The notes under the pieces are model-generated. The model had not been told where the DNA came from. It ran no database searches and saw nothing but the letters and a program-made list of their open reading frames with translations. Positions 17,649 through 34,600 of a stretch of 64,000 bases of DNA are shown here, one piece after another (position 1 is the first letter of the stretch; every line of letters begins with the position of its first letter). Source of the DNA: an uncultured delta proteobacterium. GTDB lineage: Bacteria > Desulfobacterota > Desulfobacteria > Desulfobacterales > UBA2156. The stretch lies in the NCBI GenBank assembly GCA_963736855.1, contig CAVTQK010000009.1, forward strand, positions 320,001-384,000. The letters run 5' to 3'. Position numbers and translations under genes: made by a program.

Positions 17649-17724
17649 TCCCCGGTAGCTCAATCGGCAGAGCGGGTGGCTGTTAACCACTAGGTTCGAG
17701 GTTCAAGTCCTCGCCGGGGAGCCA
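17649..17724 (+). tRNA. tRNA-Asn (anticodon GTT)
   Basis: 76 nt; acceptor stem TCCCCGG/CCGGGGA, D arm GCTC..GAGC, anticodon loop CTGTTAA, T loop GTTCAAG, encoded CCA. Confidence 0.97.
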
Positions 17725-18116: not shown

Positions 18117-18947
18117 TCAGTGCCGGTTGATGGGCACTCGGCCGGGATCACCCACGAACGGAAGGATCAGAAGGCGAGGCAGGGAAAGCTTTTGCGGATC
18201 ACGGAATTGAGACAGACCGATCACCATATCATTGTGCCCCTTGTCGGGCTGGTCTTTGTAGGTACCAAAAAGCCGATCCCACCAGGGCAGGTTGAATCCG
18301 TAGTTGCTGTTGGTCTCGCGGATGATGACAGAGTGGTGGACCCGGTGCATGTCCGGCGTTACCACGAGCAGCCGGAGTATCCGGTCCATTTTTTCTGGGA
18401 TGCGGATGTTGCTGTGATTGAACATGGAGGTTGCGTTGAGGACGACTTCGAATATCAGCACGGCCAGCGGTGGCGCTCCGAGCGCGGCCACGGCCGACAG
18501 CTTGATGGCCATGGACACAATGATTTCGATAGGATGAAACCGCAGCCCAGTGGTCATATCGAAATCCAGATCCGCGTGATGCACCATATGCAGCCGCCAA
18601 AGCGTTGGAATGGCGTGATGCAAAACATGCTGCGCATAAACCGTAAGGTCCAGCGCAATCACACCCGCAACGACCTGCATCCATTCGGACATGGATGTGT
18701 GATTGAGCAACCCCCAGTTCTGTTCGGACGCGATATGAGCCAAACCGATAGGCAGAATGGGAAAAATCAAAACTACCGACAAGGGATTCAAAACCACGAT
18801 GGTCAAATTGGCGAACCATCGTCGGACCTTGGAGGTAAGCAAGCGTCTTCTTGGAGCAAGGATTTCCAAAACAGCGAGTACGACAAAAATAACCATAAAC
18901 GCGCCGAATCGAACCACTGTTTCATTTGTCAGGAAAATACATTCCAT
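18117..18947 (-). CDS. sterol desaturase / fatty acid hydroxylase family membrane protein
   Basis: His boxes HVLHH, HMVHH, FNHSN, HRVHH; NSNYG..WDRLFGT. Confidence 0.9.
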   Translation of the reverse strand: MECIFLTNETVVRFGAFMVIFVVLAVLEILAPRRRLLTSKVRRWFANLTIVVLNPLSVVLIFPILPIGLAHIASEQNWGLLNHTSMSEWMQVVAGVIALDLTVYAQHVLHHAIPTLWRLHMVHHADLDFDMTTGLRFHPIEIIVSMAIKLSAVAALGAPPLAVLIFEVVLNATSMFNHSNIRIPEKMDRILRLLVVTPDMHRVHHSVIIRETNSNYGFNLPWWDRLFGTYKDQPDKGHNDMVIGLSQFRDPQKLSLPRLLILPFVGDPGRVPINRH

Positions 18948-18987
18948 TGCCTTGTCTTCGATAAGAATGGTGTGATTGCTTCTTCGA

Positions 18988-19335
18988 TTAAAAAGCGATG
19001 ACCTTTTCCGCCCTGACCGTAAGATCCGTCAATTCAATCAGAGTGCCGCGCCGCGCGCCCTCGGCGATTTCTTCATCCTTCATTCCCCTCGCGTCCATGC
19101 ACGTGCCGCACAGGATGACCTCGCCCTTGCGAACAATCGGTTTCAACATGCGTTCTATATTGTAGTACCCTTGAGGGGTCTGCTGTCCGGTCTTGGCGCA
19201 TAGAACGGCATCGCCCAGCAAGAAAATGGACAGTTCCACAGTTTCACGAGCAACAAGCTGGTCTGCCAAACGCAAAGCATTGTAGCTGCGCTCACTGCCG
19301 TATGGTGGATCGTTTAGGATGATGAGCATTTTCAT
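18988..19335 (-). CDS. DsrE-family protein (YchN-like)
   Basis: ILNDPPYGSERSYNALRLA, FLLGDAV, CGTCMDARG; GGAGGA RBS. Confidence 0.9.
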   Translation of the reverse strand: MKMLIILNDPPYGSERSYNALRLADQLVARETVELSIFLLGDAVLCAKTGQQTPQGYYNIERMLKPIVRKGEVILCGTCMDARGMKDEEIAEGARRGTLIELTDLTVRAEKVIAF

Positions 19336-19410
19336 TTTTTGTCCTCCAGAGTCGATAGAGATTTTCAACTTTCACAATCTATGTGGTCTGGCCTTACGCG
19401 AATGTGGTGG

Positions 19411-20109
19411 TTAAACCGTCGCAGTATCTTTTGACACCCGCGACACTTTCAGGAGCTTGGGAATGAAAAAGGAAAATATGAAAAGCGCAAGGGAGAGAAG
19501 GACCTTCCAGCTCAACAGCTCCTCCCAGCGGCCGGCGGCCCATATGTCCTTTATCGTTCCAACGAAAAAGGTAAATATGAAGGTGCCCACCATGATGCCC
19601 AGCGCCGTGCCGGAAAAGTAGTCCCAAAAACGCACCTTGGTCAGCCCCATGCCGAAATTCATTAGAGTAAACGGGAAATAGACCAGCCGCAAGTAAAGGA
19701 CCGTGGCAAAGCCGTTGCGCCCGATGGCGTCATCGTATCGTTTCAACCTGTTGCCGACGATGGAGGCGGCGAAATCCCGGCCCAAGTAACGCCCGATCAG
19801 AAAGGCGAGGCTGGCGCCGATCATGGCCGCAATCCAGACATATAGGAAGCCCCAATAGGGTCCGAAGATGGCGGCGCCCAAAGCCGTCAGAAGCGTGCCG
19901 GGAAGGAAAAGACACACACCGGCCGCGTAGATAAACACGAACGCCAATGGTGCCCATATTCCCGCGGCTTTCAAAAACAGCCCCAGTTGTTCGGCAGTGA
20001 GGTACTGTTTGGCTGGCGAAAAACGGACCAGGTAAATCGCCGCCACAACGAACAGGATCAGGATGGATACCTTCATCAGCGCGCTTTTTCTTTTTTCATC
20101 GGTTTGCAT
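19411..20109 (-). CDS. TVP38/TMEM64 (VTT/DedA superfamily) membrane protein
   Basis: LPGTLLTALGAAIFG, FLIGRYLGR, LRLVYFPF, GTALGIMVGT. Confidence 0.88.
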   Translation of the reverse strand: MQTDEKRKSALMKVSILILFVVAAIYLVRFSPAKQYLTAEQLGLFLKAAGIWAPLAFVFIYAAGVCLFLPGTLLTALGAAIFGPYWGFLYVWIAAMIGASLAFLIGRYLGRDFAASIVGNRLKRYDDAIGRNGFATVLYLRLVYFPFTLMNFGMGLTKVRFWDYFSGTALGIMVGTFIFTFFVGTIKDIWAAGRWEELLSWKVLLSLALFIFSFFIPKLLKVSRVSKDTATV

Positions 20110-20232
20110 GACGAAACCTTGTTGACACACCTTCCGGATGTCCACGGTCTATTGGATTATTTGTAAGCTCTTCGTCCATGCCTCGGATATATCTATGTAT
20201 TATCGTATTTGCTGCAAATGATCGTTTCAGGA

Positions 20233-20502
20233 TCAGCTTATTGCCACATGGCGACGGATCGCGGCCTCGAAAGCTTCCCCGCTGATCGGACAGCCCTGGA
20301 TGATAATCTCATCGGCAAGCATCAAGGCCGGTGCGGCAGGCAGACCGGATGCAATGAATTCCGTCGTGCTGTAGTATTCCCTGGGCTTTGACAGTGTCTC
20401 GATTTCCAAAGCGTATTTTTTTCCCAACCTGGGAAGCATCTCCATGAAGCCGCCTCAGGTTTTACCCATCGGCTCGTTTAAAAAGACGCGCAGCTTAACC
20501 AT
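20233..20502 (-). CDS. tsoC: NEPxGxxU-motif selenoprotein, copy 2 (89 aa, Sec16 at TGA 20455-20457)
   Basis: MVKLRVFLNEPMGKT-TGA-GGFMEMLPRLG reads in frame into ORF 20233..20445; hairpin TTCCCA-GGT-TGGGAA (20421-20435); paralogous to the upstream gene. Symbol recalled from the NCBIfam motif name, not searched. Confidence 0.85.
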
Positions 20503-20524: not shown

Positions 20525-20845
20525 TTAAGGTTTCTTGAAAAGACGCCCCAAGATTCCTTTATGCGGTGGCTCGGGCTCGGCCAGACCCAACTGGCGGCAA
20601 ATGTGAACCTCCACCTCATGTTCGGACACATCGGCTCCTTCGACGACAACTTCATCGCCCACCATGACCGCCGGTGCCACGGGCAAATCTAGCTCGAAGT
20701 ACGCGTCGGTCTGATATTCCGCCTTGGCTTTTGAGGTGACGTCGATGTCGATGGCGTATTTTGCGCCCAACCTGGGCATCATTTGCTTGAAATGCTTTCA
20801 GGGTTTGCCGTTGGGCTCGTTAAGAAAAAACCGGACTTTGAGCAT
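20525..20845 (-). CDS. tsoC: NEPxGxxU-motif selenoprotein, copy 1 (106 aa, Sec16 at TGA 20798-20800)
   Basis: GAGGAG RBS; MLKVRFFLNEPNGKP-TGA-KHFKQMMPRLG in frame with ORF 20525..20782; hairpin GCCCA-GGT-TGGGC (20765-20777). Confidence 0.88.
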
Positions 20846-20878: not shown

Positions 20879-22648
20879 TCACTGTGCGGAAACGGACCTC
20901 TTTAATTCGGCCATGCGGCTCAGGAAGGGTTCGGGAGGCAAAAAATCCACCAGGCGCAGCTCGGTGCGTTCTTCACCCCGCGCATCCAGAAATACGATGG
21001 TGGGGACTCCCTTGACACCGTATTGCCTCAACAGTTCCTCATGAAATGGGTTTCCTCCCTGGGTCACATTGATTTTAACCATTATAAAATCCTTTTGCCG
21101 CGCTTGCCGGACTACCTCGGGGTGATGAAAGGTCACATTTTCAAGCTCCCGGCACGGCGTGCACCAGTCGGCGTAAAAGTCGATGATGACCGGTTTCTTC
21201 TGCGCGGCCGCCTGCCGCAGGGTTTGTTCCGAATAGGTGTGCCACTCGATGCTTGGTCCGCGCATGGCCCAGGTGGTCACCCAAAAAGTGGCCAGCACAA
21301 TGCAGGCTGTTCCCACGAAGGTCTTGAGCCAGGGAAAGGCCCTGAAACTCGCCTGGTTTTTATCGAGCCAGCCCAGGTGTAACCCGGCGGCGAAGGCGAC
21401 CAAAACCGGCACAACAATTTTAAGCGCCTGGGGCAGGATCGGCCGAATGAAGTATGCCGCCATGCCAACCAAGACCCAACCCATGAGTTTTCGCACCCAA
21501 ATCATCCATCCGCCGGCCCGTGGTAGTCGCTGTAATTGACCGGAAAAGATCGCCAGCACGAAAAGGGGAAGGCCCAATCCCAGGCTTAGGACGAAAAAAA
21601 TCAAAAAACCAAGCCACGGGTTTCCCATCCCGGCCACCCAGGTAAGGAGGCCCAGCACGAAGGGGCCGATGCAGGGCGCGGCCACAACGCCAAGGGTGAG
21701 ACCCATGAACAGACTGCCGAAGTACCCGGTGTAGGATTTGCCGGCGGCCTGGGTCAGGACGCCGGGTAGGCGCAGTTCCCAAAGGCCAAAAAGGCTGGTG
21801 GCGAATAGGACCAGGATGCCGGCCACCAAGGTCAACACGATGGGATTCTGCAGCATGGCCCCCATCAACCCACCAGTTAGTGCGGCCACCACCCCCAAGG
21901 TTGAGTTTGTCAGAGCTAAACCCATCAGGTAGCAAATCCCATGCAAAACAAGTTTGACTTGGCCGGGCCTGTCTTGGGCTGTGCGGCCTCCAAAAAAAGA
22001 GACCGTGATCGGAATCATCGGATAAACGCAAGGAGTCATGTTCAGGGCCAGTCCGCCGGCGAAAATGGCCAAAAGGGTCCAAAGCATGGACCAACCCTGG
22101 AGGGAGCGGTCGCCCATAGGTTCATTTGACGCTTCGCCAAGCGATGTTAGTCCCGCCGGACTACTCGCGATTGGTAAACCCTGTTCCTGCCATTTTGGGA
22201 ATCCGTAGGGGTCGCGGTACACATTTTTATAACCAAGCGATGCGGCCACCCGGGCCGCCGAGTCGCTGCGGACTCATGTCAGCCCCGCTCAGTAAAAGAC
22301 AAGTACGCGCTCCTTGTCCGGGCCTAAAAATGTATTCAGTTCCCCGGCCTTGCGCCAACGCGCCCACCAAGTAGGCTCCATTGAAAAATTGAGCGCCCCC
22401 TTGATATGCCCTGTGCGATATTCCCACTCCTGGCGGGTGTCGATCAGCAGCAGTTCGGAGGGCTTTTTTTCATATCTTTCGGATAGCGCTTCGGTGGTGA
22501 TGATCTTGTACCCGCCGGCGTCAGCCTCGGCCATAACATCTTCCCATGTGGCCTGCCCGGGTGCGATGGGGCGTTGCGCGTACCAGACAATACCAATGGT
22601 GAACAATACGGCCGCCAGCGCGAGAAAATATGATCTTTTTATTTTCAT
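20879..22648 (-). CDS. tsoB: rhodanese / DsbD-transmembrane / thioredoxin fusion selenoprotein with two Sec (589 aa; TGA 22289-22291 and 22274-22276)
   Basis: ORFs 22289..22648 and 20879..22249 share a frame and join as VFY-U-AGLT-U-VRSDSAARVAASLGY at the rhodanese active-site loop; DsbD cysteines TPCVYP and APCIGP; C-terminal WCTPC; hairpin GCGGCC-CGGGT-GGCCGC (22242-22258). Confidence 0.88.
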
Positions 22649-22973
22649 GTCCGATCCCTGATCCCGCTACATTTTGCCAGATAGAAATGTATCCATTTGA
22701 GTTTTGTCGATAGCCACAATGCGAAAGGTGGCTTTTAACCGTCTCTTCTGAAAAGGAGTATTGATACTGATGGCAGTAATCCATGATCGTTCGGTACGCC
22801 GAAACAATCTTGCGGGTCATTTCAGCGCATGACTCCCTATCCTCGACGCATTTGTCCGGATGCCATTTGGTCACCAGTCTCCTGTATCTTGATTTGATCG
22901 ATGCCATGGTGGCGGTTTCCGGAAGCTCCAAAATTCTTTTTGCATCGATGATTTCCTGATATTTATGATCCAT
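22521..22973 (-). CDS. J-domain protein with an aberrant C-terminus that overlaps the tsoB-like gene
   Basis: 'IKSRYRRLVTKWHPDKC...IVSAYRTI' HPD J-domain; after about residue 83 the ORF runs 128 nt into the next gene. Confidence 0.75.
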   Translation of the reverse strand: MDHKYQEIIDAKRILELPETATMASIKSRYRRLVTKWHPDKCVEDRESCAEMTRKIVSAYRTIMDYCHQYQYSFSEETVKSHLSHCGYRQNSNGYISIWQNVAGSGIGHENKKIIFSRAGGRIVHHWYCLVRATPHRTRAGHMGRCYGRG

Positions 22974-23430
22974 CCTCGGCGATTCGTTTCCCTTCTCTCA
23001 AGAGTTTCGTGAGCAAAAATTTGGCCCCTCTGCGCGATAAACCAAGCCGTTCCGCCAATTCTTTATCGTTCAGAGTCCCATGCGTTTTTAAAAGCGTACG
23101 CACTTCCGCTTCCAGTTCCTCCAGCCAATCCTCAAACAGCACCAGCAGATCAGGATCGGCTATAGCCATTAGTTGTTTGGACTGCGCGACCTTGTCCACC
23201 AGGCTTTGGCACATCTGCGTTGGGTCGACACCTTCGCCCATGCACTCGGCCAGTCACAAGTGCACCATGCTGGACACCTTATCCCCCTCGGACTGATTGA
23301 TCAGGTTCAGAAGAAAACGCTCGCGGGCATTATCATCCAGGTCCGCAAGAAGACTTCCCGTGACAGTCGTGATTTTTGACAAGGCCTCTTCCGGAACCAT
23401 GCGGGCAATAATTTCAAAAAGCTCATCCAT
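22963..23430 (-). CDS. tsoA: LULAxC-motif selenoprotein with C-terminal winged-HTH-like segment (155 aa, Sec59 at TGA 23254-23256)
   Basis: GGAGG RBS; MDELFEIIAR...SSMVHL-TGA-LAECMGEGVDPTQMC in frame with ORF 22963..23241; hairpin at 23216-23244 with AGGTG loop. Confidence 0.88.
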
Positions 23431-23453: not shown

Positions 23454-23819
23454 TTAAAAAGTTCTTCGTGTGGATAAAAGGTCCGTCGCCACATCGTTTA
23501 AGATTTTCAAGACATTCAGAATTCTTTCATCTGCCAATTCATAATAAATGAATGGTCCCTCGCGTTCCACCTTGACCAGCAGAGAGTGCTTCAATTCCTT
23601 CAAATGGTGGGATACCAGCGGTTGGGACAGATCCAATTCCTCGACAATGGCGGATACTGACTTCTTGCTTCCGCTGATGAGCACCAAAATTCTTAGGCGG
23701 TTGCAGTCCGACAGACTCTTGGCCAGAAAGGCTGCTCTTTGAAGCTGGGCAATATCCGACTGGCATCGAGTCAGAAACCCTTCGTTTAGATCCGCTGAAT
23801 TCCGCATGTCTTTGTCCAT
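23454..23819 (-). CDS. ArsR/SmtB-family transcriptional repressor
   Basis: KSLSDCNRLRIL...SVSAIVEELDLSQPLVSHHLKELK...VEREG. Confidence 0.92.
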   Translation of the reverse strand: MDKDMRNSADLNEGFLTRCQSDIAQLQRAAFLAKSLSDCNRLRILVLISGSKKSVSAIVEELDLSQPLVSHHLKELKHSLLVKVEREGPFIYYELADERILNVLKILNDVATDLLSTRRTF

Positions 23820-24781
23820 TATTCAACGACACTTCGGCATGTCTGATCACCTTTGCGGGTTTCAACATAGTGCGCGGCCGCCAAGGCCGCCGTACAACCA
23901 TCCGCGGCGGCAAGGACAATCTGGTTGGCGTATTTTTGCCGGAGGTCGCCCACGGCAAAAATGCCGGAAATGTCGGTTTCGCATTTTTCATCCGTGATGA
24001 CATATCCAGTACTGTTGACCTTGATCCCTGCGGGAACCAGTTGATTGTTCGGCGCAAAGCCGACAAAAATGAAAACGCCTTCGGTATCAAGATCCCGCTG
24101 ATCGCCGGTTTGCGTGTTTTTCAAGGAGATGTCACGGACGCCGTTGTCATCGCCATTGATTGTGGTGACGACCGTATTGTATATGATTTCAATCCGATGC
24201 TCGGCGAAAACGCGCTGCTGAAGGATGCGGCTGCCTCGAAAGGCCTCCCGTCGGTGAATGAGGTAAACCTTACGGGTGATTTTTGAAAGGTAAAGGGCAT
24301 CTTCCAGAGCTGTATCGCCGCCACCTACGACAGCAACGACTTTATCGCGGAAGAAGAAACCGTCGCAGGTCGCGCAATAAGAAACCCCCTTGCCGAAATT
24401 CTCGTTTTCGCCTGGTATGTTCAACTTTCGGGCGGTGCCGCCGGCTGCCAGAATGATCGCGTGGGCTTTTAAAAGAGTGCCGTCGGCAAGACGCACGGAA
24501 TGGTATTCAATTCCAGGTTCTGTCGCGATGGCCTCCTTTTCCAAAATCTCAAGGTTATACCGTTTGGCATGCTGCAGAAATTTATCGCAAAGATCGAAGC
24601 CGCCGATTTCAATAAAACCAGGATAATTCTCCACTTCCTTGGTGATCGCCACTTGCCCGCCAAAAACACCCCTTTCAATCAGCACGGTCTTCAGCGCCGC
24701 GCGCATGGCATAAATCCCAGCGGTTAAACCCGCGGGGCCTCCACCGACAATGATCAAATCGTAAAGCTGATTATCCGGCAT
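23819..24781 (-). CDS. trxB: thioredoxin-disulfide reductase
   Basis: GGGPAGL, ENYPG, SYCATCDG, GGGDTALE, FAVGD; start MPDNQLYD. Confidence 0.95.
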   Translation of the reverse strand: MPDNQLYDLIIVGGGPAGLTAGIYAMRAALKTVLIERGVFGGQVAITKEVENYPGFIEIGGFDLCDKFLQHAKRYNLEILEKEAIATEPGIEYHSVRLADGTLLKAHAIILAAGGTARKLNIPGENENFGKGVSYCATCDGFFFRDKVVAVVGGGDTALEDALYLSKITRKVYLIHRREAFRGSRILQQRVFAEHRIEIIYNTVVTTINGDDNGVRDISLKNTQTGDQRDLDTEGVFIFVGFAPNNQLVPAGIKVNSTGYVITDEKCETDISGIFAVGDLRQKYANQIVLAAADGCTAALAAAHYVETRKGDQTCRSVVE

Positions 24782-25078: not shown

Positions 25079-26264
25079 CTATCCCTCGGAAGGGGCGGTC
25101 AGGGTCTCCCAGATATCTTCGACAAGGAGCGGATTGAAAATGCGGACGCCTCGGACGTTGAACCGCTGCTCGCCGTTATAGAGGACCGCGCCGGCCGTGA
25201 CCCGTTTGATTTCCAACGTCTGAAAACGCTCCAGTCCCTTGATGAAATCCACGGAAAACGTGCTGGCGGACTTGATCTCGACCGGCGTGAGCGCGCCCTT
25301 TTCCCTGATGAGCAGATCGACCTCGTTGCCGTGGGAGTCGCGGAAGAAATAGATCTCCGGCCTGATCCCCTTGTTGAGAGCGCCCTTCACGATGTCCGCA
25401 ATGATGAGGTTCTCATACAGATTGCCGCGCAAGGGATCGCGGGATGCCTGTTCCTGCCGTGTGGATGCCCAGCAGAAAGGCGGCGAGACCCACATCCGTG
25501 AAAAATATCTTGGGGGACTTGATCACCCGCTTTCGGACGTTCTCGAAAAACGGGGGCAGTTCGAACACGACATACGAGGCTTTCAGCACGGAGAGCCAGT
25601 TTCTGATCGTCGTGCTGGAAGCGCCCACGTCGTTGCCGAGCGAAGCGAGGTTGACGACCTGTCCCACCCGGCCGGCCAACAGGGTGAGGAATTTCTGAAA
25701 CTGCGACAGATCGCGCAACTGGATCAAGGCGCGCACATCGCGTTCGACGTAGGTTTGCAGGTAGCCGTTGAAAAACCTGCGCGGTTCGAGACCCTCTTCG
25801 TGAAGCCGCGGAAAACATCCGCGGCCGATCAGGTCGAAGGGGTCCCGTGCCGACTCATAACGGCGAAGTTCATGAAGGGAGAAAGGCCACAGGGTCAGCA
25901 TGGCGGTCCGGCCCGCCAGCGACTGGCTGATCGCCTCATGCAGTTGCGGCTGATGGCTGCCGGTCAGGATAAACCGCCCGCGTCTTCTGTTCTTGTCGAC
26001 CATTCCCTGGATGTAGGAAAGCAGAGCCGGGAGACGTTGCACCTCGTCCAGGATGCCGCCGCCTTCCATCTGGCCGAGGAATCCCCGCGGATCGGCTTCG
26101 GCCGCCATGCGGACATCCGGGTCTTCCAGGGAAAAGTACGGTTTGTCCGGAAACGTCATCCGGGCCAGCGTGGTCTTGCCCGATTGGCGGGGACCCAGGA
26201 TGGTCACCACGGGATACTCCGCGGCGGACCGGACCAGTTCTTCTGTGATGTCTCGAGTGATCAT
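25079..26264 (-). CDS. AAA+ ATPase with DUF4143 domain; one +1 frameshift near 25455
   Basis: GPRQSGKTT, LDEVQ, LTGS, SLAGR, YVERD, KSPKIFFTDVG; continues in another frame as LYEN...YFFRDSHGNEVDL...EIKS. Confidence 0.85.
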
Positions 26265-26884: not shown

Positions 26885-27127
26885 GTGCCATTGAATGCCC
26901 AGGCAGACATACCTCGCTTAGTCCGCAGGCTTCGGGAACGAACCGGGCTCACCCAGGAAAAGTTTGCGGCCAAACTTGGCGTGACGTTCCCCACCATCAA
27001 CCGCTGGGAAAACGGCCGGGCCAAACCGTCGCCGCTGGCGTTGAGGCAGATTGAGAAATTGCTCCGGAGCTTGGGCGACCAGGGCAAGGATCTCTTGGAG
27101 GAGTTTTTCCCCGGAGAGAAGAGCTGA
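26885..27127 (+). CDS. Xre-family HTH regulator ahead of the R-M genes
   Basis: LRERTGLTQEKFAAKLGVTFPTINRWENG. Confidence 0.9.
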   Translation: MPLNAQADIPRLVRRLRERTGLTQEKFAAKLGVTFPTINRWENGRAKPSPLALRQIEKLLRSLGDQGKDLLEEFFPGEKS

Positions 27128-27202
27128 TATGGCCAAGGAAAACAGTGAGCTGCCGGCGCCCAGGGATGGTGAGGCGGCGCGGCTTGAGCTCAGACAGGTG
27201 GT

Positions 27203-29332
27203 ATGCGCATGAATAGTGACACCTTCAAGGACATCGAGAAGCTCGAATCCGACCTCTGGGAGGCTGCCGACAACCTGCGGGCCAACTCCAAACTGACCTC
27301 CAGCGATTACTTCATGCCGGTGCTTGGTGTGATCTTTTTACGTCATGCGACCAATCGTTTCGACGCAGCCCACCGACAGATCAAGGCCGACCAGACCGGC
27401 GGCAAGATGCCCAAGCGAAAGGTCCTGCCGGCCGACTACATCGCGCGTCGAGCACTTTACCTTCCTGAACCGTCGCGCTACGACTGGATCATGCAGCAGG
27501 CCGCCGTCAGCGGCGTCGACCTACCCCGGATAGTCACCGAGGCCATGACCGCCATCGAGGCGTCGTTCGAGCCGCTCGTGGGAATCTTGCCCAAGGATTA
27601 CGGCATCTTCGAGCCCAAGGTGCTCGAAGACCTTATGCGCCTATTCAACAGCGAACGCATCCGGCAGGCCAACGGCGATGTCTTTGGCCGTATCTACGAA
27701 TACTTTCTGGCGAAGTTCTCGATCCAGAAGGCCCACGACAACGGCGAGTTCTTCACGCCGTCCTCGCTCGTGCAGACCATCGTCAACGTGATCGAGCCCG
27801 ACCATGGTACCGTGTTCGATCCGGCCTGTGGTTCGGGCGGAATGTTCGTACAGTCGAGCCACTTCATCGAGCACGAGGGCGGCGACACGGCCAAGAAGGT
27901 CGTCTTCTACGGCCAGGAGAAGAACCGTGACACCATCCGCATCGCCAAGATGAACCTCGCGGTGCATGGGCTGGAAGGCAAGATCGCCGAGGCCATCACC
28001 TACTACCAGGACGAGCACAACCTCGCGGGCCAGTGCGACTTCGTGATGGCCAACCCGCCCTTCAACGTGGATCTGGTGGACGCCGAGCGCATCAAGGGCG
28101 ACCCGCGCCTGCCCTTCGGCCTGCCGGGCGTGAACAAGCAGAAGAAGGTCGGAAACGGCAACTACCTCTGGATCTCCTATTTCTGGGGCTACCTCTCCCC
28201 AAAGGGCCGCGCCGGCTTTGTCATGTCCTCCCAGGCCTCCAGTGCCGGACATGGCGAAAAGGAGGTGCGCCGCAAGATCGTGGAGACGGGCGACGTGGAT
28301 GTGATGATCTCCATCCGCTCCAACTTCTTCTACACGCGGACGGTTCCGTGTGAGTTGTGGCACTTCGACCGGGCCAAGCCGCCCGAGCGCAGGGACAAGG
28401 TGCTGATGCTCGACGCTCGCAATGTCTTTCGCAAGGTCACGCGCAAGATCTACGATTTTTCGCCCGAACAAATGCACAACCTCGCGGCGATTGTCTGGCT
28501 CTATCGAGGGCAGCAGCAGCGCTTTCTCTCTCTGGTGAAGGATTACCTCAGCCGGGTCTGCGCCGAGAGCGCCGTCATCCCTGGGACTCTGACATCCTTC
28601 CAAAACACGCTCGCGGATTTACGCGACAGCTTCGATGCGCTGGCCAAGGCGACGGCGAAACACGCCGAGCTCGATGACGCGAAAAAACAGGCGCTCGCCG
28701 ATGCCGTGGCGGAACTGCGCGAAGCCGACGCACTATACAAGACCGACGCGCAAAAACTCCTCGTGAGTTTCGCAGCATTCGGCCGCAAGCATATCAAGAC
28801 GCTGCCCGGGAATAACGACGCCCAGCACGCGGCACGCAAAGCCTTCGACCCGCATGCCGAGGCGATTCGTGGCCTCGCCAAGCAGGTGGACCTGCTCTAC
28901 AAGCTCGCCGCGCGCGTGGCGGACCTGGGCGCGGAACTGGCAGCGGAAGATACGATCTCCGCCGTTTACGACCGGCGCGCCACGGGGCGGCTGGTCAAGC
29001 AGCTCGACTCGGAGCGGAAGGCCACGGTCGAGCAGTTGAAGCGTGCCGTCTATTTCCACCGGCAGGTGGTGTGGTTGCAGGACCGTTTCCCCAAGACCGA
29101 GCTGCAAGCCGTGCCCGGGCTGGTGAAACTGGTGGACCGCGCGGAGATTGAAGCCGCCGACTGGAGCCTTACCCCCGGCCGCTACGTGGGCGTGGCTCCG
29201 CCCGAGGAGGACGAGGACTTCGACTTCGAGCAGACCATCCGCGACATCCACACCGAGCTGGCAGAGCACAACAAGGAGGCGGCGGAATTAGCGGCGAAAA
29301 TCCAGGCAAACTTCGAGGGGTTGGGGATATGA
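27203..29332 (+). CDS. hsdM: type I restriction-modification N6-adenine methyltransferase subunit with a long helical insertion
   Basis: LWEAADNLR, GEFFTP, DPACGSGGM, NPPF, SLTPGRYVG. Confidence 0.95.
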   Translation: MRMNSDTFKDIEKLESDLWEAADNLRANSKLTSSDYFMPVLGVIFLRHATNRFDAAHRQIKADQTGGKMPKRKVLPADYIARRALYLPEPSRYDWIMQQAAVSGVDLPRIVTEAMTAIEASFEPLVGILPKDYGIFEPKVLEDLMRLFNSERIRQANGDVFGRIYEYFLAKFSIQKAHDNGEFFTPSSLVQTIVNVIEPDHGTVFDPACGSGGMFVQSSHFIEHEGGDTAKKVVFYGQEKNRDTIRIAKMNLAVHGLEGKIAEAITYYQDEHNLAGQCDFVMANPPFNVDLVDAERIKGDPRLPFGLPGVNKQKKVGNGNYLWISYFWGYLSPKGRAGFVMSSQASSAGHGEKEVRRKIVETGDVDVMISIRSNFFYTRTVPCELWHFDRAKPPERRDKVLMLDARNVFRKVTRKIYDFSPEQMHNLAAIVWLYRGQQQRFLSLVKDYLSRVCAESAVIPGTLTSFQNTLADLRDSFDALAKATAKHAELDDAKKQALADAVAELREADALYKTDAQKLLVSFAAFGRKHIKTLPGNNDAQHAARKAFDPHAEAIRGLAKQVDLLYKLAARVADLGAELAAEDTISAVYDRRATGRLVKQLDSERKATVEQLKRAVYFHRQVVWLQDRFPKTELQAVPGLVKLVDRAEIEAADWSLTPGRYVGVAPPEEDEDFDFEQTIRDIHTELAEHNKEAAELAAKIQANFEGLGI

Positions 29333-30474
29333 CAAAACCAAAGAATAGTGGATCAGACACCTCCGATGCACGCATGTCGCGTGGACGCATCCGCAATGGC
29401 GCATCTTTCCCTGCGCCGCCTTCCCGCGCGGGATTACCTGCGGGTTACGCTGCATTGCTGGAAAAGATCAAAGAGCGTATCAGCACTGAGCGGCTCAAGG
29501 CGGTCATGGCCGCCAACTCCGCCATGGTGCTGCTTTACTGGGACATCGGAAACATGATTCTGGACCGGCAACAAAAGGAAGGCTGGGGCGCGAAGGTGAT
29601 AGACCGCCTTTCCGCAGACCTTCGCCGGGCGTTTCCGGACATGACCGGCCTGTCGCCCCGGAATCTCAAGTACATGCGGAGCTTTGCCGCTGCCTGGCCG
29701 GATGCGGCAATTGTGCAAGAGGCGCTTGCACAAATCACCTGGTATCATAATCTGGCGTTGATGGAGAAACTGGATACTCCTGAAGATCGCCTTTGGTATG
29801 CTGCAAAGACGATCGAAAATGGCTGGTCCCGTAACATCCTCGCTTTGCAGATTGAATCCCGCGCTCACGAACGCCACGGAAAGGCCGTGAACAACTTTGC
29901 CGTCACCCTGCCGCCCGCCGATTCCGACATGGCCGCCCAGGTTTTCAAGGACCCATACCTCTTCGACTTTCTCGGCACCGCCGATCCGCGCCGCGAGCGG
30001 GAGGTCGAGCAGGCCCTGGTGGACCACATCCAGCGATTTTTGCTGGAACTCGGGGCGGGATTTGCCTTCGTCGGACGGCAAGTCCATCTGGAGATCGGCG
30101 ACCACGATTTCTACGTTGATCTGCTGTTCTACCACCTGAAGTTGCGCCGCTATGTAGTGGTGGAACTTAAAGCAGTGCCCTTTGACCCGGGCTTTGTCGG
30201 AAAACTGAACATGTATCTTTCCGCTGTGGACGATCTGTTGAAGCATCCGGATGACCAACCGGCCATCGGCCTGCTCCTCTGCCGCTCCAAGAATAAGCTC
30301 ATCGTCGAGTATGCCCTGCGCGGCTTCACCCGACCCATCGGCGTGGCCGAATGGGAGACCCGCCTGACCAAGAGCCTCCCCAAGGAACTCAGAGGCAGCC
30401 TGCCGACCGTGAAGGAGATCGAGGCGGAATTGGCGGTGAAAATTCAGGAGAACGTCGAGGAGTTTGGAGCATGA
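29329..30474 (+). CDS. YhcG/DUF1016 PD-(D/E)XK nuclease-domain protein
   Basis: LYWDIG, WGAKVIDRLS, SPRNLKYMR, KDPYLFDFL, ELGAGFAFVGRQ, VVVELK. Confidence 0.93.
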   Translation: MTKPKNSGSDTSDARMSRGRIRNGASFPAPPSRAGLPAGYAALLEKIKERISTERLKAVMAANSAMVLLYWDIGNMILDRQQKEGWGAKVIDRLSADLRRAFPDMTGLSPRNLKYMRSFAAAWPDAAIVQEALAQITWYHNLALMEKLDTPEDRLWYAAKTIENGWSRNILALQIESRAHERHGKAVNNFAVTLPPADSDMAAQVFKDPYLFDFLGTADPRREREVEQALVDHIQRFLLELGAGFAFVGRQVHLEIGDHDFYVDLLFYHLKLRRYVVVELKAVPFDPGFVGKLNMYLSAVDDLLKHPDDQPAIGLLLCRSKNKLIVEYALRGFTRPIGVAEWETRLTKSLPKELRGSLPTVKEIEAELAVKIQENVEEFGA

Positions 30475-31605
30475 GATGGCAACTTCATCAGTTGCAGGAC
30501 CTTTGTGCCGAAATGACATCTGGAGGCACTCCGTCTACCTCGCAGTCTCAATACTACGGAGGGGATATCCCGTGGCTACGAACGCAGGAGGTCAATTTCA
30601 ATCGAGTTACCGACACAGAGATCACGATCACCGAGGACGGCCTAATCAACTCAACCGCGAAGTGGATTCCAGAGAACAGCGTAATCATTGCGATGTATGG
30701 GAATTCTGCAGGGAGAGTGGCCACCAACCAGATTCCACTGACTACGAACCAGGCGTGCTGTAACTTGATCGTTGACCCTCGAAAGGCCGACTACCGGTTC
30801 ATCTATTATCGGTTAATGCTCGACTATGACGTCCTGCATCAAATGGCAAAAGGCTCGGCTCAGAACAACCTCAATGCAGGCCAGATCAAGGCTTACGCAA
30901 TCCAGACGCCGACAGTCGAAGTGCAAGAGCGCATCGCCGACATCCTCTCCGCCTACGACGACCTGATCGAGAACAACCGGCGGCGGATGGCGCTGTTGGA
31001 GGAGGCGGCGCGGCAGCTCTACCGCGAGTGGTTCGTCCGCCTGCGCTTCCCCGGCCACGAGCACACCCGCATCACCAACGGTGTGCCGGAGGGGTGGGAG
31101 CGACAGCCCTTCGAAACAGCTCTCGTCCTTCAGCGTGGTTTCGACCTGCCTATTCAAGAATAGAGAAGATGGCGATGTGCCGATTTATGGCTCAACCGGC
31201 ATTAACGGATTCCACAGCAAGGCAAAAGTTACAGGTCCAGGTGTGGTGACGGGACGAAGTGGCACGTTGGGTGAGGTGCATTACATACCGCGTGACTTTT
31301 GGCCCTTGAACACAGCACTGTGGGTTAAAGAGTTTAAGCGTGTCACACCGCTTTTCGCTATGTTTTTGATGCGTGAGATGGACCTTAGGCAGTATAATGG
31401 TGGGGTTTCGGTTCCGACTCTCGATCGAAAAACGGTGCATAAGGCGGAAGTGTTGATACCTTCGAAGCGGCTGGTGATATCCTTCGAGGAGTTTGCCTCG
31501 CCACTTTTTCATCAGATCGGTACATTGACCGCGCAAACCGAGAAACTCCGCGCGGCCCGCGATCTCTTGTTGCCGCGCCTGATGAGCGGGGAGATCGCCG
31601 TATGA
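30471..31605 (+). CDS. hsdS: type I R-M specificity subunit; +1 frameshift near 31158
   Basis: SGGTPST TRD1, 'ERIADILSAYDDLIENNRRR' spacer, GRSGTLG TRD2, RDLLLPRLMSG end; split across ORFs 30351..31163 and 31081..31605. Confidence 0.88.
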
Positions 31606-31621
31606 TGGGAGCCACAGCGCC

Positions 31622-34600
31622 ATGATCACCGATATCAACAGCGAAGACCGCCTTGTCCAGCAGACCTTTGCGGACCACCTCCGCGACCGGCTCGGCTGGG
31701 AAAGCGTTTATGCTTACAACGCCGAGACCTTCGGGCCGCAGGGCACTTTGGGGCGGGCCTCCGAGCGCGAGGCGGTACTGGTGCGCGATCTGCGTGCGGC
31801 CCTTGGGCACCTGAATCCGGGCCTGCCCGAATCTGCCCGAGAACAGGCTGTCGAAAAGCTGGCTCGCATCGATTTTTCCCGTTCGCTCGTCCAGCATAAC
31901 CGCGAATATTACGGCTTCATTCGTGGCGGGGTGCCGGTGGAGTGGCGGGATGCAAAGGGCGAAACCCGGCACGCCCGGGCGCAGGTGATCGACTTTCGCA
32001 ATACCGGCCGCAACCGCTTCCTCGCCGTGCGCGAGCTCAAAATCCAAGGCGTACGGGTACCGCACTATAACCGGCGCGCGGACCTGGTGTGTTTCGTGAA
32101 CGGTCTGCCCATGGTCTTCATCGAGCTCAAGGCGGTCTACCGCAACATCCGCGCCGGCTTCGACGACAACCTGACCGACTACATGAGCGAACACAGCATT
32201 GCCCAGGCCTTTCATCATAACGCCTTTCTGGTGGTGAGTAACGGCGACCAGGCCCGCTACGGCTCGATCACCAGCCAATGGGAACACTTTGTCGAGTGGA
32301 AGCGAAACGCCGAGACGGATAAGGCGAGGCTGGATGCGCAGGCCCTCCTCGACGGCATGCTGGCCAAGGAACGGCTTTTGGACCTGCTTGAAAACTTCAT
32401 CCTCTTTGACGACAGCCGGGCGGGCGGTACGCGCAAGATTGTTGCGCGCAACCATCAGGTGCTCGGCGTCAATAGCGCCGTAGGAGCCGTGGTGCGGCAG
32501 GAGGAGCTCAAGCGGCAATTCCCGCCGACCGAGCGGCTGATTTCGTACCGTATGCCCAAACCGGAGTTCCTATTGGCCGCGGATGCGCCTTCGGCCGATT
32601 CGGCCTATACGACGGCCGCGCGATCCGATAACGCCAAGAACAATGAGCTGCCGCTGGTGAAGCGGGCCCATGAAGATCTGGGGCGCCTGGGTGTTTTCTG
32701 GCACACGCAGGGAAGCGGCAAGTCTTACTCCATGGCTTTTTTTGCGGAGAAGGTGCGGCGGGTGGTGCCCGGAAACTTCACCTTCCTGGTGATGACCGAC
32801 CGCGAGGACCTGGACGACCAGATCCGGCGCACCATGATCGGCTGCGGCATCACGGACGAGAAGACGCCGCGGGCAGGCTCAGGCAAGGAGCTTAATGAGA
32901 TCCTGCGCGCTAATCACCGCTTTGTCTTCAGCCTGATCCACAAGTTCAACCAGCAGGTTGTAGAGCCCTACAGCGAGCGCGACGACATCATCGTCATTTC
33001 GGATGAGGCGCACCGGACCCAGGCGGGCAGGTTCGCGCGCAACATGCGCCTGGCGCTTCCCAACGCATCGTTCATCGGTTTCACCGGCACGCCGCTCTTC
33101 AAGCACGACGAACTGACCAAGCGCATCTTCGGCGGCTACATCTCGCGTTACGACTTCAAGCGCTCCGAAGAGGATCAATTCCACCGTCAGGCTGGTCTAC
33201 GAGAACCGGGGCGAGAAGCTGGGAATCGCCCGGCTCGACCTGAACGACCGCATCGCCGACGCCGTCGAACAGGCCGATCTCGACCCGGATCAGCAAGCCC
33301 TGCTGGAGAAACTGCTCGGAAAGGACTACGAGGTGATCACGGCCGACGACCGTCTGGACAAACTGGCCGAGGATTTTGTGGAGCACTGCGCCACGCGCTG
33401 GGAGACGGGAAAATCCATGCTGGTGTGCATCGACAAGATCACCTGCGCGAGGATGTTCCAGCGCATCGAGCCGCGCTGGAAAGCCAAACTCGCCCGGCTG
33501 CAAGGGAGCATATTGGATTAAGGAGGCAACCCTTGCCGCTGCCAGCCGACACTGACCTCCGGGAGCGTTTGGGAGCGGAACTCGATGCCTTGCGGCGGAC
33601 AGGTGCGGTGGATGGAGAGTACGATCATCGAGATCGTCATCAGCGAGGCCCAGAACGAGGTCCGCGATTTTGCGAAATGGGGATTTGACATCATCCCGCA
33701 CCGGGTGGTGATGAAGACCGGCTTCGAGACACCCGACGGCAAGCGCGTGCCGGTGGAGGATGCCTTCAAGGACCCGCAACACCCTTTCCGCATCGCCATC
33801 GTCTGCGCCATGTGGCTGACCGGTTTTGACGTCGAGTGTCTGGCGACACTCTACATCGACAAACCCATGAAGGCCCACAACCTGATGCAGGCCATCGCCC
33901 GGGCCAACCGCGTGTTTCCCGGCAAAGACTGCGGCGTGATCGTGGACTACAACGGCATGCTCAAGAGCCTGCGCGAGGCCCTGGCGCAGTACGCCTTGGG
34001 CGACGAAGAAGGCGAAGGCGGGTCCGGCGGCATCGTGGCCCCGATCGAGGAACTGGTCGCGAGCCTGCTCCAGGCCATCGAAGCGGCCGAAAATCACCTG
34101 CTCGGCCTGGGCTTCGACTCCAACCCGGCTGAAGGGCGCGACCGGGTTTGACCGGATCGAGGCGCTGCGTGACGCGGTGGACGCACTCTACACCTCGGAC
34201 GAAGCCAAGCGCCGCTTCGAGATCATGGCTCGGCAGGTCTTCATCCGCTTCAAGGCCCTGCTGATGGAGCCGAGCGCGTTTGCCTATGCCGAGCGCCACG
34301 ACAACATCGAGGCCATCTACAAGAAGCTGCAGGACCGGCGCGACACGGCCGACGTGACCGAGGTGCTCAAGGCGCTGCATCGCATCGTCAACGAGGCGAT
34401 TCGCGCGGCAGCCCCGGGCGATGACCACGCCGAAGGGTTGACGGTGGACCTGAGCCGGATCGACTTCGAAAAGCTCCGGAACGAGTTTGCGAGAAAGGTA
34501 CGCCGCAAGCAGGCAGCTCTTCAGGACATCCGTGACGTGGTCGAAAAGAAGCTGGCGCAGATGCTCGCCCGAAATCCGATGCGGATGGACTATTACAAGA

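Follow-up and report, generated by a model that had tools for sequence, protein, structure and literature searches.

DsbD carries electrons from cytoplasmic thioredoxin to its membrane domain, then to its C-terminal domain and finally to its N-terminal domain (nDsbD), which serves as a junction to several protein partners (available text of PMC2631958). TsoB is a bacterial selenoprotein listed in a 2026 review as "rhodanese-like form 5", with the motif UxxxxU and two selenocysteine (Sec) residues, citing Haft & Tolstoy 2025 (PMC13188914, available in part). The gene described here, tsoB, lies in a 64,000-nucleotide (nt) stretch of an uncultured delta proteobacterium of the Desulfobacterales (GenBank assembly GCA_963736855.1, contig CAVTQK010000009.1, positions 320,001 to 384,000), hereafter the window, to whose first letter all coordinates refer unless they carry a locus name. 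It occupies 20879..22648 on the minus (-) strand and encodes a 589-residue fusion of rhodanese, DsbD-type transmembrane and thioredoxin domains with two Sec codons. The protein scores 987.4 bits against the NCBIfam TsoB model NF045694 (cut-off 805) over residues 7-582, and its motif and Sec count agree with the listing in the part of PMC13188914 available. Its closest named relatives, at 80-81% identity, come from Desulfosarcina, Desulfococcus and other Desulfobacterales.

The family, its motif, the Sec count and the operon are thus already in print (NCBIfam; PMC13188914 in its available part), and the novelty implied by an earlier sequence-only note on this DNA (the original prediction) is not supported: the gene is a further member of TsoB. 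What is added here is a constraint on two hairpins with covariation in only one of them, a group of sister DsbDs with a C-X4-C N-terminal domain, and a modeled thioredoxin fold for the neighboring TsoC. Literature searches whose coverage excluded the primary TsoB paper and its supplements returned no prior description of these three points. Searches outside subscription journals likewise returned no experimental work on TsoB and no paper on bacterial tandem Sec insertion elements, and no passage of PMC13326102 deals with Tso or rhodanese. The reading favored here, at a probability of roughly 0.55, is a DsbD-type electron relay to a periplasmic selenol/diselenide pair of TsoB.

Two in-frame UGA codons in a rhodanese loop

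The original prediction placed two UGA codons five codons apart in a rhodanese catalytic loop and joined that loop to DsbD and thioredoxin domains in one polypeptide. The DNA it quoted is present, with TGA at 22291-22289 and 22276-22274 (-), codons 120 and 125 of the loop VFY-U-AGLT-U-VRSDSAARVA. With internal TGA read as Sec, the frame from 22648 to 20879 runs through 589 codons to a terminal TGA stop. Alignment with solved rhodaneses sets the first Sec (U120) opposite the catalytic-loop cysteine and the second (U125) inside a two-residue insertion after that cysteine, giving a CX4C-type loop. Structure matches recover the rhodanese fold with Sec at the catalytic position, and the rhodanese signature residues of TsoB are invariant. 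Pfam assigns Rhodanese to residues 52-155 (50.8 bits; 22184..22495, -), DsbD_TM to residues 189-405 and a thioredoxin-like domain to residues 468-575. A 22.5x contig of a near-identical strain, from another sequencing run, covers the loop with both TGAs unchanged. The genome also encodes the Sec machinery, with selA, selB and selD over cut-off and a tRNA-Sec.

Conservation of the pair was counted over pooled genome and metagenome loci, the window entering once, which gave 176 loci with the loop and 160 distinct segments; the two collections may overlap, and related loci are not independent. TGA occupies both positions in 174 of the 176 and TCA both positions in the other two, while a cysteine codon occurs in none, so that the CxxxxC, UxxxxC and CxxxxU variants expected by the original prediction are absent from these TsoB loci. 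Other rhodanese families nonetheless often have CX4C: the best 150 hits contain 198 loop matches, of which 140 are of this type. Among genome loci, the loop is present in 78 of 80, always as TGA-N12-TGA, and the two without it have an internal deletion (L010) or a contig end (L075). In the L010 gene (L010:7001-8401), roughly residues 90-200, and with them the Sec loop, are missing through a deletion that looks in-frame. Locus L047 belongs to a cultured carrier, Desulfoprunum benzoelyticum DSM 28570. Metagenome loci have the loop in 77 of 80 (75 TGA/TGA, 2 TCA/TCA), and in a phylum sample, where 21 of 301 genomes have a match over cut-off, all 25 such matches carry two TGAs. The TGA pair is beyond chance.

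Standard open reading frame (ORF) calling divides the gene into a 119-residue piece and a 456-residue piece starting at GTG 22249. Databases hold the former as a protein of 119-120 residues, and 34 of the best 150 protein-library hits to the rhodanese domain terminate exactly before U120. Taken at face value, these calls would make the TGAs real stops, leaving either a truncated rhodanese and a separate DsbD from about 22249, or a pseudogene. This is highly improbable, as the protein sequence that separates and follows the TGAs is conserved in frame in 79 of 79 segments, the stop at both positions is always TGA and never TAA or TAG, and stop-free full-length homologs exist. The GTG at which the original prediction would have let a separate DsbD begin is the codon of Val134, within the second hairpin described below; no ribosome-binding site is seen before it, and valine at this position is encoded by GTG in 78 of 78 cases.

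The stop-free homologs are P0010, a full-length TsoB-like protein of 591 residues with G-x4-C in the loop (802.9 bits, just below the cut-off), and the TCA/TCA genes of L162 and L175, which belong to one lineage and encode a 577-residue TsoB with S-x4-S (L162:3304-3321) and both hairpins intact. Each of these is one uninterrupted ORF, which shows that the fusion is real, and together with the TGA/TGA loci they bear out a single fused polypeptide with two Sec. We regard it as nearly certain that the window gene encodes one membrane protein of this kind.

In the TCA/TCA variant both Sec codons were lost jointly; loss of a single one is seen in 0 of 176 loci. The tsoA and tsoC genes of the L162/L175 lineage retain their TGA codons, and tsoA is frameshifted. 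Decoding of Sec from UCA is, given those TGA codons and that frameshift, unlikely, and the lineage is better described as a natural double Sec-null than as one with a recoded Sec codon. A metagenome scan for further Sec-free TsoB genes with P0010 as query returned only the TCA/TCA pair and did not return P0010's own gene. Two further proteins are of note: P0027, a short protein ending in C-x4-stop, is a candidate Cys/Sec form, and P0119 is a partial protein related to P0010 with no cysteine in the loop.

Two hairpins and the decoding of closely spaced UGAs

Two hairpins follow U120 at the places given by the original prediction. HP1 (22260..22275, -) has a 5-bp stem and a 6-nt loop and overlaps the second TGA; it begins 13 nt after U120, and its loop lies 18 nt after that codon. 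HP2 (22242..22258, -) has a 6-bp stem and a G(G/U) loop; it begins 15 nt after U125, with the loop 21 nt after U125 and 36 nt after U120.

Both hairpins are conserved beyond the needs of the protein sequence. In 71 genes, one third base predominates, at a frequency of 0.83-1.0, at seven of the eight fourfold sites of codons 126-135, and the eighth, in the HP2 loop, is G or T only; the 141 other fourfold sites average 0.50, with none at 0.9 or above. Full pairing is seen for HP1 in 152 of the 160 distinct segments (95%) and for HP2 in 154; after synonymous recoding, the shares are 31% and 13%, respectively. Covariation was evaluated on 149 of 158 distinct 54-nt segments, in which 99.1% of cells pair. 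Two-sided changes number 61 cells, against 10.4 in shuffles; 0 of 500 shuffles gave as many as 61. All of these changes fall in two HP2 pairs. RNAalifold recovers both hairpins with one HP1 pair dropped, and the 22.5x contig carries one change in HP2, from a G-C to a G-U pair. The original prediction had treated the hairpins alike, which holds for conservation and fails for two-sided covariation, found in HP2 only. By its pattern of conservation, HP1 is under selection.

The bacterial Sec insertion sequence (SECIS) consensus model in section 5 of PMC13188914, as far as that source is available, sets four constraints, including a spacing of 16-37 nt and an energy threshold of -7.5 kcal/mol. HP2 satisfies all four for U125 (21 nt, -12.3 kcal/mol), and its 36-nt spacing to U120 is likewise in range. 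Its G(G/U) loop is found in 160 of 160 segments, and the TsoA and TsoC hairpins have a loop of the same kind. With its agreement with the consensus model, its G(G/U) loop and its two-sided compensatory changes, HP2 is very likely a SECIS, and these sequence features make a SelB-binding role for U125 highly probable.

HP1 fits the same model in loop size, G position and spacing (18 nt). At about -6.3 kcal/mol, though, it misses the threshold, and it has no G(G/U) and overlaps the second UGA. Its changes are one-sided wobbles with no two-sided change, and its pair probability in the window sequence is only 0.13. Window segments folded alone are not unusually stable (z from +1.33 to -1.59 over six segments); support for the hairpins is one of sequence conservation and not of energy.

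Whether HP1 is nonetheless a weak SECIS of its own for U120 is an even call. Its offset from U120 (13 nt) resembles that of HP2 from U125 (15 nt), its pairing far exceeds the recoding expectation, and loop position 2 is G in 160 of 160 segments, although this base is forced by an arginine codon. Somewhat less probable, though a serious contender, is that HP2 alone serves both UGAs, since its loop lies within 16-37 nt of each and keeps the invariant G(G/U) that the weaker HP1 lacks. HP1 would then never bind SelB and would act as a folded spacer or hinge that brings HP2 within reach of U120, a role to which we give the same tentative weight; the similar offsets, the loop G and the excess pairing of HP1 speak against this arrangement. 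As HP1 contains the second UGA, it must melt before U125 is read.

The tyrosine codon before U120 (22294-22292, -) is TAC in 76 of 77 cases, compared with 53% TAC gene-wide, a bias that could possibly reflect a 5' context effect on readthrough. Rfam matched only the tRNA at 17649-17721 at this locus. How bacterial SelB decodes two UGAs 15 nt apart is a general question for which tsoB offers a natural 54-nt cassette with two constrained hairpins, suited to reporters, and the cassette bears on the production of proteins with several Sec residues.

A proposed DsbD-type relay with a rhodanese at its end

TsoB has one N-terminal hydrophobic helix (residues 3-24; 22577..22642, -), a signal or anchor predicted to be N-in, followed by eight hydrophobic stretches between residues 186 and 461, as judged by mean hydropathy and a structural model; the DsbD-type transmembrane domain with its eight predicted helices spans 21266..22093 (-). 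Mean lysine plus arginine counts in alternate loops are 2.8, 2.1, 3.9 and 3.1 versus 0.0, 0.03 and 1.0. Because these charges alternate as the positive-inside rule expects, both soluble domains are predicted to lie outside, and a periplasmic location of the rhodanese and thioredoxin domains is quite probable. The topology prediction proposed as a check by the original prediction is thus in line with its reading.

All 71 near-full-length genes have the same four cysteines: Cys207 (22030-22028, -) and Cys326 (21673-21671, -) in the transmembrane domain, and Cys496 and Cys499 of the motif WCTPC in the C-terminal thioredoxin domain (20903..21247, -). A third membrane cysteine, Cys239 (21934-21932, -), is conserved in 70 of 71 TsoB genes. 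Among solved structures, DsbD-gamma matches the C-terminal domain best, both by profile (E 7e-22) and by fold, and the domain retains the Asp and Glu equivalent to D455 and E468, which tune the active site of Escherichia coli DsbD (available text of PMC2631958).

Among relatives outside TsoB whose N-terminus is intact, four DsbDs score best (L104, L105, L106 and L108), each with an N-terminal domain bearing C-X4-C 71-76 residues ahead of the first membrane cysteine; Pfam DsbD_N is matched at E <1e-5 in two of the four. A tree of 24 membrane-plus-gamma sequences sets the TsoB group (93/87) apart from these sister DsbDs. In TsoB, Pfam finds no match to the immunoglobulin-like DsbD_N domain, where the rhodanese stands instead, and DsbD_N has no match in this genome. 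Given that its nearest non-TsoB relatives carry a C-X4-C N-terminal domain, the U-X4-U rhodanese of TsoB appears to occupy the slot of the DsbD terminal redox domain.

By analogy with DsbD, electrons would move outward from a cytoplasmic thioredoxin-fold donor. In the proposed relay, the thioredoxin reductase TrxB would feed such a donor, with TsoC as the candidate, and electrons would pass to Cys207/Cys326, on to Cys496/Cys499 and then to the N-terminal rhodanese with U-X4-U. U120 might attack a sulfane-sulfur substrate (a persulfide, a polysulfide or perhaps a selenium analogue), after which U125 would resolve the adduct to a diselenide with release of sulfide, and the gamma domain would re-reduce that diselenide. 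Of these steps, re-reduction of the Sec pair by the gamma domain is rather more probable than otherwise, whereas sulfane sulfur as the substrate is a tentative assignment. The presence of a second Sec hints at a resolving step more than at simple sulfur transfer. Recycling of a diselenide by the DsbD/thioredoxin module, as the original prediction envisaged, is plausible and gains support from the predicted topology and from the sister DsbDs. A precedent exists in Geobacter: the available part of PMC13510729 describes a periplasmic enzyme there that reduces polysulfide, depends on Sec and has another fold.

The same slot could also be read in another way. If the rhodanese were a mere substitute for DsbD-alpha, it would shuttle electrons to periplasmic proteins with no small-molecule substrate. 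Its position and X4 spacing equal those of the N-terminal domain in the sister DsbDs, the genome lacks a DsbD_N match, and nDsbD itself has several protein partners, all of which suit such a shuttle. It is nevertheless improbable, as two further DsbD_TM/CcdA-type genes are present in the genome, the neighbors seen in at least four loci include no recurrent periplasmic thioredoxin-like partner, and the rhodanese signature residues are invariant.

The tso cluster and comparison with known systems

The window cluster reads trxB-tsoR-tsoA-tsoB-tsoC-tsoC, all on the minus strand. It comprises trxB (23819..24781), a thioredoxin-disulfide reductase gene over the TIGR01292 cut-off; tsoR (23454..23819), for an ArsR/SmtB-type regulator (155.6 bits, cut-off 115); tsoA (22963..23430), for an LULAxC selenoprotein with TGA at 23256-23254 (215 bits, cut-off 170); and, beyond tsoB, two tsoC copies. 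The first copy (20525..20845, TGA 20800-20798) encodes an NEPxGxxU selenoprotein with a predicted thioredoxin fold, and the second (20233..20502, TGA 20457-20455) is divergent, at 43% identity to the first; tandem copies recur elsewhere. Both exceed the cut-off, at 151 and 119 bits. Where at least 5 kb flanks tsoB in both directions (47 loci), tsoC is nearby in 45, tsoR in 40, tsoA in 37 and trxB in 13. TsoC has no N-terminal hydrophobic stretch, which makes it a candidate cytoplasmic donor, and its model (predicted local distance difference test, pLDDT, 91) shows the thioredoxin pattern, with thioredoxins at nearly all top ranks.

Neighbors also bear on the substrate. A DsrE-like gene lies near tsoB in 4 of 79 TsoB loci and also follows the cluster in the window, and in L019, L028, L037 and L038 an ArsR-rhodanese fusion with a C-x4-C loop stands directly upstream of tsoB in place of tsoR-tsoA; both point towards sulfur. 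The alternative is that the two selenolates bind or reduce a periplasmic metal(loid), such as arsenic, mercury, chromate, selenite or tellurite, and that the DsbD chain keeps them reduced with no sulfur transfer. An ArsR/SmtB-type TsoR is present in 65 of the 79 loci, an arsenite-methyltransferase-like query matches 10 and chromate-transporter and neighboring-gene queries 6 each, and a preprint by Haft and Gwadz, in its available part, offers two-selenium ligation as an alternative to a diselenide in another protein. Such genes occur in a minority of loci, though, with none in the window cluster, and U120 sits at the rhodanese catalytic position; with the fusions and the DsrE-like gene also on the side of sulfur, we consider a metal(loid) function unlikely, if slightly less so than the bare shuttle. 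Beside tso operons, genes for arsenite-methyltransferase-like selenoproteins and GcvH-related genes are found repeatedly (L080:9993-10601, L018:10090-10599, L008:1973-2479).

Several points weigh against the relay to a periplasmic Sec pair. The main objection is chemical: reducing a diselenide is much harder than reducing a disulfide, and the CxxC of a DsbD-gamma domain may be too weak for the task unless the loop is strained. P0010 and the L162/L175 genes show that TsoB proteins lacking the Sec pair can persist. The full-length model gives little confidence in how the domains are placed relative to each other (predicted template modeling score 0.39, mean pLDDT 69), although it is confident in the rhodanese core (block pLDDT 68-92), and the tree, being midpoint-rooted and without a true root, does not fix which way the domain swap went. 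At the donor end, trxB is nearby in just 19 of the 79 loci. TsoC lacks a CxxC and carries only one Sec, and it finds only weak fold matches (best E 1.3e-3, none reaching E 0.001), with Thioredoxin_3 matched by 5 of 30 TsoC members, so that its role as donor is a guess. Sequence searches of TsoC against solved structures returned chance matches only. Finally, the arsenite-methyltransferase-like and chromate genes point towards metalloids and away from sulfur.

In its most complete form, the relay would make the Tso operon a selenium-wired electron export line from TrxB through TsoC and TsoB to a diselenide-cycling rhodanese that has displaced the DsbD N-terminal domain and reduces periplasmic polysulfide, with UGAs 15 nt apart decoded by hand-over, the first hairpin melting before the second acts. 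This full version is speculative and, taken as a whole, unlikely. The relay still poses two questions of wider interest: can a DsbD-type chain recycle a diselenide, and why is a cysteine variant absent from all 176 loci, given how common CX4C is in rhodaneses of other families?

Between tsoA and tsoB, a J-domain gene (22667..22973, -) is cut near 22720 and runs there into the 3' tail of a tsoX-like selenoprotein gene, of which the last ~16 codons remain. The contig of the near-identical strain is ~348 nt longer at this junction, which is also where contigs from two other runs are broken. Most of tsoX has been lost from the strain or the assembly behind the window. Downstream and co-oriented with the cluster are genes for a VTT-domain membrane protein, the DsrE-like protein and a fatty-acid-hydroxylase-family protein (18117..20145, -), identified by Pfam and neighborhood. 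The tRNA gene (+), just past the cluster end, is a possible insertion boundary. Further out lie what we take to be an ATPase-like gene at 25079-26264 (-), frameshifted-looking near 25420-25490, and, at 26885-33700 (+), presumably a helix-turn-helix gene followed by type I restriction-modification-like genes.

Compared with described TsoB members, the window protein shows no difference, and it sits in the same tsoR-tsoA-tsoB-tsoC cluster; the locus differs in its two tsoC copies and in the shortened J-domain/tsoX junction. With DsbD (NF001419, where TsoB scores 258.6 bits, below the cut-off of 330; E. coli nDsbD-tmDsbD-cDsbD), TsoB shares the pair of invariant transmembrane cysteines, the gamma-type CxxC thioredoxin domain and the predicted topology, but it has a U-X4-U rhodanese in place of the immunoglobulin-like domain. 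With the CX4C-loop rhodaneses of secreted multi-rhodanese proteins and with other Sec rhodaneses (the LYCAU family NF041203, at 31.6 bits against a cut-off of 115, and forms 1-4 in the available part of the review), it shares fold, catalytic position and loop length. Unlike NF041203 and the CX4C rhodaneses, TsoB has Sec at both positions and is fused to a DsbD relay.

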